Source: a virus
DNA length: 11,552 bases
Direction: 5' to 3' (one strand)
Virus genome (UHGV): UHGV-1585826
The notes below the pieces were generated by a model. The model made no database searches. It worked only from the letters and a program-made list of their open reading frames with translations, and was not told where the DNA came from. Both the position numbers and the translations under genes were made by a program. Positions 2,492 through 5,500 of the stretch are shown in pieces. The first letter of the stretch is position 1, and each line of letters begins with the position of its first letter.

Positions 2492-2517
2492 ACCCGGTCA
2501 TTGTGCCGGGTTTTTTT
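2492..2517 (+). terminator. Rho-independent terminator immediately upstream of the giant ORF
   Basis: Stem ACCCGG (2492-2497) / CCGGGT (2506-2511), 8-nt loop TCATTGTG, followed by seven T (2511-2517). The giant gene's GGAG (2520-2523) and ATG (2529) begin 3 and 12 nt after the T-tract. Confidence 0.75.
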
Positions 2518-2528
2518 ATGGAGTCTGT

Positions 2529-5500
2529 ATGGCTTATTCCGATGAACAGCGCCCTGAAGCGCAATTTGGCAACCAGAGCCGCAACAGCCTGAACATTCAG
2601 CAGCCGGGAGAGACTGACAGCTATGATGTGTTTTTCTCCGATCCCAATCGCTGGAAGGACAACAGCACGTCGTTCAGCCTGGGCGATGTATTGCCAACTA
2701 TGGGGAAAGGTGTCGCCCAGTCCGTCCGGGGGACAGGGGAAATGGCCCGTGGACTCGGTGATGCGATGATTCAGAGCCCGGTAAAAACAGGGGCACGTAT
2801 TTTAAATGAGTTCAGCCGTATGGGGCTGCCGGGAGTAGCAACTGTTCAGGATATTTTTGTCGGTGGCAGCAAGGGGGCGGATGAGGTCATCGACACTCTG
2901 CCTGATGGAAAAAATGCGGTTACTGATACTGTCGGTAAAGGTCTGAAGGTCACAGGCAAGGCAGTCAGTGGCGGCGCTAAAGCCTCGGATGAATGGCTGA
3001 CTGGCAAGATGTCGCCGGGGGCGCAGCGGGCGCTGAATACACCGATGACTGAAGGATATGATGATTCAGCGGTCTGGGTAGCGAAAGGGGTTAACCTGAT
3101 TGGTGCGCTTGTACCGGATATGGTTGCAGGCGGTGTGACTAAAAAGCTGGGTGATGTCACTCTGCGAAAAGTGCTGACCGCCGGGCTGGAGAAAAAATAC
3201 ATCGCGGCAGGGATGCAGCCGGAAAGAGCCACAGCACTGGCAGCCGAAGCTGTCGATAAAAAAATGCCGGATTTTTTCCAGGCAGGCCTGATCACCCATT
3301 CCACTGTCAGTGCGCAAGGGCGGAGTGCAATGGCAGCGGCAGATGCTGTTCTTAACGCGGATTATTCTGAGCTGGCGAAGTCACCGAAATTTCAGCAGAC
3401 CTTTTTGTCAATTGATGCAGATCCGCAGCACGCGCAGCTTACTGACCGCCAGAAAATGGACCTGGCAAAAGAGCGTGTTGCCGATGAGGTGCGTGCGCAA
3501 CTGGCAACCGATCCTGAATTGCTGGCTGTGAATGCCATGGCGGCAAAACTGGGCGATGCTCAGTTGCTTAATCTGGCGATGCGGGGCACGGCGAAGACCG
3601 TTAAAAGCGGCATTGTCAGAAATGCCACGGAACAGGGGACGATTAATGCGGCGCAGGGTGGCTATTCACGCTATCAGGAAAACACGGCATTGCGTGAGAC
3701 CGCCGGAATGGATGTGTCACCGTGGGAGGGCGTGGCTGACGCAACGATCGAAGGTGCAGCCCTTGGTGCTGCAATGGGGGCACCATTCGGTGCGGCTGCC
3801 GGATATCGTGGAAAACGTCAGGCGGCAGATGAAGCAGCCATGCGTGAGGCTGAAAGCGTTCCTCAGGACGAATCGGCTCCGCAACCCGAACCGGTTGATC
3901 CGGTGGCACAGCATCGTGAATCTATGCAGGGGATGAATCGCGAGCAGCTTCTGGAACAGTATGCTGATGCGGATATGGCACATGAGGGAGACACGTCTGC
4001 CGTTCATCGCCGGGAAGCCGCCAGCCAGCTGTTGAATGAACTGGATGAACAGGCGAAGCGACAGGCGGTGATGGATGAGCTGAAGGCGAAGCCGCGCCCT
4101 GAACTGCTTGAGGAATACCGAAAACTCAGCCAGAAGGAAGGGCGTACTGATACTGAAGAGCAGCAGTTACAGGCAATACGTGATGTGCTTCGCCCTCAGC
4201 GGGAGGCCAGACCGGAGGCACAGCCACAGCCGGAAAATGCGGATGATGGCGACGGGAGTATTTACCCGACGGTGCGGTTCCGCGATCCGGATGAAGTTCG
4301 TATTGAAATTAACGAGAGTGGTGCGTCCAGACCAGCAGAACGCATTGAAAAGGTGCGTCCGGACAACCGTTATTTCACGGATGAAAAAAGTGCTCTGGGG
4401 AGCGACGTTTTCCGCAATGCCAGCGCCACCGGCCTGAAACCGTCCGTAGTGAAGAAAGGCGAGAATCAGTATGCCGTTGAAATGGATAATCCTGCGTTCT
4501 CTGAAGATGTGGCAACGGAGACCATTAACACTCTGGCTGACGGAGAGCGTATTACTGATGCTGATCCGATGGAACAGCCCGCGTTCATGCGTGACCCGCG
4601 ATTCCGTGGTTTTACGGGGGATGATACAGAAGTGCAGGCCCGTCTTGCCCGTGGCAACGCGCCGACGGCGGAAGAACTGGTGCGTTCCCAGATGGCTGAA
4701 GGTGATGCCGGTCCGACAGCACAGGAGTTAACTGAGCGTCCACGCCTTCCCGCTCCCGGCGATATTCATCCCGGACAGGGATATCCGTTACCAGGAGAAG
4801 TGGCGCGTACGCCGGATGAAAATCAGGCCGGACGTGGTGGTCGTTTTACCACAACCGGTGAGGTGAAGGGCCAGAGTTTCCAGAAAGGACGTGAGCAGGC
4901 ACCGGAAAATGCCGCTGGTCGCCAGGGGGAAATACTGGAGGGCGAAACAGTTCGTCGTGGTCTGCCGTCACCGGATGAGCAGAACGCCACAGCACCAGTG
5001 CGTGAAGGACTTCCTGCACCTGAAAGTCAGCGTGGGGTTGATATGCCACAGCCTGAATCACTCCCTCGTATGGTTCGTGACTCCCTTCCGGAACTGGCAC
5101 AGCAGGCAGAAGCACGCAGACAGACCGGGGATAATCGCCAGACCATAACCGATGTTCCGGATACTGAGGTGCCGGTGCCGGTAGATAAACCGAGCACTCA
5201 CCAGCAGGTGCGTGGTGCGAAAATTGAAGACTTTGGCGAGGAGATTAAGGGCGCGGCAAAACACCGTTATGCGCAGCTTGCTGAAGCTATGGGTAAAACG
5301 CTGGAGGATGGGGAGTACGCGACACAACCACTGAGCAAACTGTTTCCAAAGCCGGATTATGCCCGTCTGGAAAAAGAAGGTGTGGATAGTGACACGCTGG
5401 CAATGATGGCGTTGTATCGCAGTGAAATTCCCACCAGAACAAGCCGTAACATGCAGAAATGGATCAGCATTGTTAAAAGCGGTCGCGAAGCTACTGCCGG

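Follow-up and report, generated by a model that had tools for sequence, protein, structure and literature searches.

A conserved candidate intrinsic terminator in front of the giant polyvalent-protein gene of a 933W-like lambdoid late operon

In phages of the family that carries Shiga toxin (Stx), late transcription from the promoter pR' depends on antitermination by the Q protein at the terminator tR', and this dependence on Q has been demonstrated for the stx and lysis genes (PMC7547250). The shape of the 30-kb late transcript of these phages is known in detail only near pR'. Terminators inside the late operons of lambdoid phages are already recognised, with roles that are called unknown, and two have been proposed, namely partial termination or the stopping of transcription that lacks antitermination (PMC8022706). 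Here we consider a site of this kind in a stretch of 11,552 nucleotides (nt) of the virus genome UHGV-1585826, referred to below as the window, in which a hairpin followed by a run of T lies immediately before the start codon of a giant gene. DNA similarity assigns the window to the late region of a 933W-like lambdoid prophage of the Stx-phage group Sepvirinae/Traversvirus, and the homologs of the giant gene are L0134 in phage 933W and vb_24B_48 in phage phi24B. We propose, with a probability of roughly 0.7, that the site is a conserved Rho-independent terminator within a single Q-antiterminated late operon, that it is crossed by Q-modified polymerase and that the giant gene would be silent without Q.

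Positions 2490-2531 of the window read atACCCGGTcattgtGCCGGGTttttttatGGAGtctgtATG, and the elements at the junction are as follows.

2461-2491, + strand: 3' untranslated stretch of a truncated L0133-like gene, running up to the hairpin and containing UUCCUGA at 2484-2490
2492-2511, + strand: terminator hairpin, with 5' arm ACCCGGT (2492-2498), loop CATTGT (2499-2504) and 3' arm GCCGGGT (2505-2511)
2511-2517, + strand: U-tract of seven T, in which T2511 closes the stem with A2492 and six U stay unpaired, followed by AU
2520-2523, + strand: Shine-Dalgarno (SD) sequence GGAG of the giant gene, 5 nt before its ATG
2529-10880, + strand: giant gene, 2783 amino acids, polyvalent-type, with domains LPD5, LPD1, MuF_C and LPD38

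The hairpin, found in a pattern scan, closes a loop of six with seven pairs, of which five are G-C, the terminal one is A-U and an inner one is U-G, and its free energy (dG) when folded alone is -11.1 kcal/mol. It lies 31 nt past the stop codon at 2458-2460, on the + strand, which is the coding strand, and between the last T and the ATG at 2529-2531 there are 11 nt. The initial annotation of the window had placed the end of the T-tract at 2517, the GGAG at 2520-2523 and the ATG at 2529, and every one of these coordinates is exact. A loose terminator scan of the window returned 12 sites against 12.6 expected, that is, without enrichment, and a stricter rule was therefore applied, requiring a single hairpin of at most 30 nt with a dG of -10 kcal/mol or lower, directly followed by at least five consecutive T, with 200 dinucleotide shuffles as the control. 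Under this rule the + strand holds two sites, the hairpin at 2492-2511 and another at 1206-1227, against 0.035 expected per strand, and the - strand of the window holds none. The sequence and structural properties by which intrinsic terminators are recognised are found here: a GC-rich stem-loop, a U run 3' of the stem, a place on the coding strand after a stop codon and, as described next, a conserved structure. The initial annotation had also called the terminator strong, which is only an inferred quality from a sequence with a stem of 7 bp and no upstream A-tract.

Of the fetched loci, 58 extend over the start of the giant gene, and all 58 have the hairpin and its T-run. These loci fall into three sequence classes, which differ in the arms of the stem.

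Class of this window: 5' arm ACCCGGT, 3' arm GCCGGGT, hairpin -11.1 kcal/mol
933W class (in 933W at AF125520 49027-49052): 5' arm GCCCGGC, 3' arm GCCGGGT, hairpin -13.1 kcal/mol
Divergent class, or class 3 (PhiR12_3 and IMG/VR contigs, giant-protein N-terminus 72-81% identical): 5' arm GCCCGAC, 3' arm GTCGGGC, hairpin -12.4 kcal/mol

All seven stem pairs are kept in each of the nine distinct sequences. Pair 6 changes from G-C to A-U, pair 1 occurs as A-U, G-U or G-C and pair 7 as U-G or C-G, so that two pairs have changed on both sides and one on a single side; the covariation score is matched by none of the shuffles. All relatives have a T-run of 7-9, and GGAGTCTGTATGGC is invariant in every one of them. 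The intergenic sequence flanking the helix differs between the classes, strongly so upstream of the hairpin, and from that upstream divergence it can be said that the hairpin moves together with the giant gene's 5' end. In a tblastn search against phages the N-terminus of the giant protein was confined to 933W-like phages, apart from weak Vibrio phage matches that lack the start, and the arrangement of terminator and gene can therefore be traced only across these three classes. A wider contig search for relatives returned solely a 376-bp fragment labelled Xanthomonas pisi. This contig (NZ_JPLE01000269.1, from strain DSM 18956) encodes residues 271-395 of the giant protein at 90% identity and is most likely a contamination of that assembly.

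As the intact reference we used the prophage at ynfF in E. coli O104:H4 2011C-3493 (locus L002; its Q region is locus L011), which is the closest intact relative of the window. It carries a PF06530 Q antiterminator (E 2e-50), upstream and on the same strand, and L011 19185-19995 is 96.7% identical to the annotated ninH-Q-pR'-qut-tR' segment of 933W, with the 933W tR' hairpins present at L011 19759-19778 and 19964-19986. From there to the giant gene, over approximately 26.7 kb, the late genes of the relative lie on one strand (+); the opposite-strand exceptions in the late regions are single accessory genes, namely a phosphatase-like gene in the relative and bor in 933W. Across its 28.9-kb late region the relative contains eight compact terminator-like sites on the sense strand against 0.33 +/- 0.5 expected, an excess of about 24-fold, and three on the antisense strand against 0.65 expected. 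Six of the eight sense-strand sites are intergenic, falling after the portal gene, the capsid gene, the next gene, lom and the L0129 homolog and before the giant gene, and four of the eight are followed by an SD and a start codon within about 11-20 nt; 933W has the same terminator sites. The tight succession of terminator, SD and ATG had been taken to be peculiar to the giant gene, but three further junctions in the late operon of the intact relative show it too, so that an absence of space for a promoter is typical of this operon. The search for a Q-like antiterminator suggested in the initial annotation was positive in this relative (PF06530 together with pR'-qut-tR'), and Q-dependent read-through fits. 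The structure of the site and its conservation thus go together with a place in the Q-type late operon of the intact relative and with a layout that recurs along it.

The space between the U-tract and the ATG of the giant gene comprises only 2518-2528. No consensus match to a sigma-70-like promoter was found near 2400-2528, and by inspection the T-run does not offer the A that a -10 hexamer has at position 2, and a -35 at usable spacing is missing; a promoter between hairpin and ATG or nearby was accordingly rejected. The proposal that no room is left for a promoter, and that the giant gene is transcribed only by read-through, has therefore held up, and all transcripts of the gene must cross the hairpin and T-tract.

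The ATG at 2529 is the first ATG, GTG or TTG after an in-frame stop at 2475. The records of 933W (L001 29026-29067; AF125520 49025) and phi24B (L061 49148) start the giant gene 13 codons further upstream, at an ATG that sits in the 5' arm of the terminator and yields MPGHCAGFFYGVC before the conserved MAYS. At the same position this window has ATA, and the other classes are likewise without a start. A "putative leader peptide" is noted for phi24B vb_24B_48, probably an artefact that arose when the hairpin and T-run were translated. This amounts to a correction of both records, in which the start codon of the giant gene falls inside the terminator, and in neither of them is the terminator itself annotated.

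The window is a deletion variant, and this bears on which gene the terminator follows. In every intact relative about 14-18 kb separate the portal gene and the gene following it from the giant gene downstream. Window positions 1-2351 are 99.4% identical to L002 3075-5425 and positions 2342-11552 are 99.98% identical to L002 20001-29211, and the features upstream of the terminator are the following.

21-1187, + strand: C-terminal part of a P22-type portal gene, the 5' part of which lies beyond the edge of the window
1345-2460, + strand: chimeric open reading frame (ORF), 371 amino acids, a protein of PHROG 479, made of an L0115-like gene fused in frame with an L0133-like end
2342-2351: junction of the 14.6-kb deletion, where the flank alignments share 10 nt, among them an exact CGGGTA microhomology (2346-2351)

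Missing from the window are 14.6 kb with 18 genes, including capsid, tail, cor, lom and hok-like genes, together with most of the L0133 homolog; four further genes were lost in the deletion beside those named. The chimeric ORF consists of the L0115-like gene (335 amino acids, in the position between portal and capsid) and the last 36 codons of the L0133-like gene, and the giant ORF of 8.35 kb stays intact. In all intact phages the terminator follows a gene of the L0133 family and is about 14.6 kb away from the gene in the scaffold position. The label "scaffold" for the L0115-like protein is itself only positional, and searches with this protein gave no Pfam family and no PDB entry or solved relative.

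None of 5,426 complete E. coli genomes or 50,697 phage records contains the junction. At least 24 contigs, taken from NCBI genomes, ENA metagenomes and Logan assemblies, with human gut metagenomes among them, encode the exact fusion protein, and the junction is present in all eight fetched contigs (L003-L010), six of which are 100% identical to the window and two of which differ by 2 bases. A chimeric assembly as the source of the junction was rejected on these grounds, and 0-2 differences in 11.5 kb point to a clonal defective prophage. A contig with the deletion is CAKKAI010000002.1 of assembly GCA_918346085.1. Another locus with it, L003, matches the intact relative at 99.98% identity over the 8.3 kb upstream available for comparison and does not reach as far as Q.

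Read-through by Q-modified polymerase is the best explanation for the site because the intact relative has Q, the pR'-qut-tR' segment and the eight sense-strand terminator-like sites. During lytic growth, polymerase starting from pR' and modified by the phage Q protein would be terminator-resistant and would cross the hairpin at 2492-2511 in the same way as the other intercistronic terminators of the operon, so that the giant gene would be co-transcribed with the genes upstream. Polymerase without Q, whether from spurious promoters or from the promoters of lysogeny-expressed genes upstream (lom, the hok-like locus), would stop in the U-tract, before the SD, and the 8.4-kb giant gene would thereby stay silent unless Q is present. 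Termination of unmodified polymerase, read-through by Q-modified polymerase and insulation as the selected role are what the anatomy and context of the site suggest.

Published transcript data cross this junction in two phages. In EDL933, the host of 933W, the RPKM values (reads normalised by kilobase of gene and by million mapped reads) for the upstream gene and the giant gene under 11 conditions were 12/14, 8/6, 3/2, 2/3, 10/13, 0/1, 2/4, 8/8, 1/3, 18/44 and 0/1 (PMC4048457 Table S4), so that at low coverage RNA is about equal before and after the site, with no drop. In phi24B treated with norfloxacin the upstream gene was induced 7.3-fold and the giant gene 5.6-fold (p = 0.31), and the fold induction falls with distance from pR', from 134 for S, 118 for R, 75 for the small terminase and 30 for the portal gene to 15-22 for the tail genes, 7-8 for the genes preceding the giant one and 5.6 for the giant gene itself (PMC4651098 Table S4). 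This gradient could reflect sampling time, polarity or cumulative leakage at internal terminators. Taken together, the EDL933 and phi24B data fit co-transcription with efficient read-through and speak against strong attenuation.

A number of points weigh against read-through by Q-modified polymerase at a working terminator. The EDL933 values come mostly from single samples, with neighbouring genes as uneven as 48, 2, 151 and 17 for Z1490-Z1493 in lysogeny broth (LB), and the assignment of Z1494 as the upstream gene and Z1495 as the giant gene was inferred from gene order after lom. The induction of the giant gene in phi24B is not significant, and equal RNA on both sides of the site would also be expected of a non-functional hairpin. 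The covariation in the stem is real but thin, since it comes from three independent lineages only. Neither the window nor the 10-kb flanks of the contigs with the deletion showed a Q gene. Termination and read-through at this site are, moreover, predicted from anatomy and context.

An alternative is that the site is a programmed attenuator, at which Q-modified polymerase partly terminates and leaves less mRNA for the giant protein than for the upstream genes. The site stands immediately before a very large gene, of whose product few copies are probably required, the two roles put forward for terminators inside operons include partial termination (PMC8022706), and the phi24B induction declines along the late operon from 134 (S) to 5.6 (giant gene). 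However, there is no drop in RPKM from the upstream gene to the giant gene in EDL933, the phi24B step at the site is small (7.3 to 5.6) and not significant, and a fold change is no measure of attenuation where induced cells also supply the baseline RNA. The initial annotation had framed attenuation as making the giant protein in far fewer copies than scaffold, and this comparison is an artefact of the 14.6-kb deletion: natively the terminator follows L0133, and since the gene beside it in the window is a deletion-made fusion, no stoichiometry argument rests on it. We consider attenuation unlikely. Stable 3' hairpins protect bacterial mRNAs, and the hairpin might instead be mainly an RNA 3'-end stabiliser or processing boundary, shielding the upstream mRNA from 3' exonucleases after cleavage of the late transcript. 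Hairpins at gene ends throughout the operon would suit such a role, and so would the differing RPKM of adjacent 933W late genes (portal 35, next gene 181 in LB), which suggests segmental stability, but there is no known processing site here and the U-run of 7-9 kept in all classes is a signature of termination that is needless for exonuclease protection. A stabilising role is possible alongside Q-dependent read-through, with which it is compatible, but it leaves the conserved U-run unexplained, and as the main function it is improbable.

The initial annotation had also raised an influence of the hairpin on translation, which would operate if UUCCUGA (2484-2490) paired with UUA.GGAG (2516-2523) to lengthen the helix and mask the giant gene's ribosome-binding site. 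The minimum-energy fold does contain this extension, with the SD paired to UUCC at 2484-2487, and the predicted probability that the SD bases of the window are unpaired is at most 0.1 in three sequence contexts. Among the relatives, however, the extension is 67-72% paired against 100% for the terminator helix, it is broken in all five sequences of the divergent class without compensatory change, and the RNAalifold consensus lacks it; the overall folding energy is unexceptional (z = -0.74), and the SD of class 3 and of 933W is predicted to pair with another partner, which is downstream, invariant and weak. Translational control by this helix is thus predicted in the window but not in the divergent class, and we regard it as very improbable. 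It is more improbable still that the hairpin arose by chance or is a passive, functionless relic of a module boundary. Such an origin would agree with the loose scan, which was not enriched (12 against 12.6), and with the difference between classes upstream of the hairpin, as at a mosaic joint, but not with two sites under the strict rule where 0.035 were expected, nor with the presence of the element in 58 of 58 loci, pairing that is kept through changes on both sides and sense-strand sites about 24-fold over expectation in the intact operon.

A search of Rfam at the site gave sub-threshold matches only (16-24 bits, against gathering scores of 42-50), and since all of these end at the U-tract they represent a generic terminator shape; in the late region of the intact relative no Rfam family reached its gathering score. 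The text of a study of Hfq in enterohaemorrhagic E. coli (PMC4104026) reports no small RNA at this site. An Hfq-type small RNA from the 3' untranslated region was rejected as a candidate, with no Rfam family match and none reported in that study.

The other strict site of the window lies after the portal gene.

1206-1232, + strand: second intercistronic terminator, AACCCCGTCATCGTACGGGGTT followed by a T-run, dG -11.7 kcal/mol, 18 nt past the portal stop codon

The portal terminator (ACCCCGT-CATCGT-ACGGGGT) and the giant-gene terminator (ACCCGGT-CATTGT-GCCGGGT) have the loop CATYGT in common, and their stems, both of the form CCCNG...CNGGG, differ by a compensatory C-G/G-C swap. The same loop is found in the terminator of the divergent class (GCCCGAC-CATCGT-GTCGGGC; L053 2962-2986), and GTCAT also occurs in the loop of a terminator at L002 7120-7138. 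Judging by their sequences, the terminators of the portal gene and the giant gene may have arisen from one cassette as paralogous copies, or the likeness could be coincidence. One may go further and suppose that the tight junctions of terminator, SD and ATG are deliberate Q-dependence checkpoints, each gating a late module and the last guarding the giant gene from lysogen-active promoters, with some of them being paralogous copies of a cassette that is perhaps recognised by an RNA-binding factor of phage or host; this is a speculative extension that we think quite unlikely.

Further hairpins were noted in the late region. Directly after the portal terminator, window positions 1231-1279 form a second long imperfect hairpin (GTTTCCGGAGATAAGCG...CGCTTATTCGCGGGGGC). 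The 163-nt spacer between the portal gene and the next gene folds at -56.5 kcal/mol (z = -2.4), with 2 of 200 shuffles folding as well, and this gap of 157 nt is the one late intergenic region of the window that is roomy enough for a promoter or regulatory RNA. Within the L0115-like gene an antisense hairpin of -18.2 kcal/mol is followed by GTTTTT (window 1733-1697, - strand), opposite to the annotated genes there. In the intact relative a terminator lies directly after the capsid gene (L002 6680-6697), and between the hok-like and next late genes a GC-rich hairpin of 9-10 bp at L002 17086-17111 scores as a terminator on both strands; it falls inside the annotated L0129-like ORF and is possibly part of a hok/sok-type locus.

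If Q-dependent read-through is correct, the distal late genes, including the uncharacterised polyvalent protein of about 2,800 residues, are placed behind conserved terminators and are predicted to be silent in lysogens and to be expressed only with Q. Compared with known systems, the giant gene resembles phage morons in its position, in a variable distal late region near lom and hok-like accessory genes with terminators of their own. Unlike morons, it has no promoter match of its own and no strict terminator after it within the window, and it is therefore not a moron cassette. In phage T7 the partial terminator T-phi follows the major capsid gene, and T7 uses its own polymerase and no antiterminator. 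T-phi is likewise a hairpin terminator within a co-directional late gene array with more late genes after it, but it terminates partially, which is not indicated at the present site by the EDL933 RPKM values. The tR' terminator belongs to the same phage family, 933W and other Stx phages, and has the same combination of hairpin and U-run, and Q read-through is established for it (PMC7547250); it differs in being a regulatory gate right after the promoter that yields the StxS small RNA, whereas the site described here is about 27-28 kb downstream in intact phages and has no known RNA product or regulatory role. Similar in setting is the predicted terminator at the end of the procapsid module in phages L and P22 (PMC8022706), also an intrinsic terminator on the sense strand inside a late operon with one Q-type antiterminated promoter, from which the present site differs in belonging to the short-tailed 933W-like group, in abutting the next SD and in preceding an 8.4-kb polyvalent-protein gene. 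In the light of these comparisons the site is an unannotated intra-operon intrinsic terminator of a Q-antiterminated lambdoid late operon, a largely ordinary case of textbook lambdoid antitermination.

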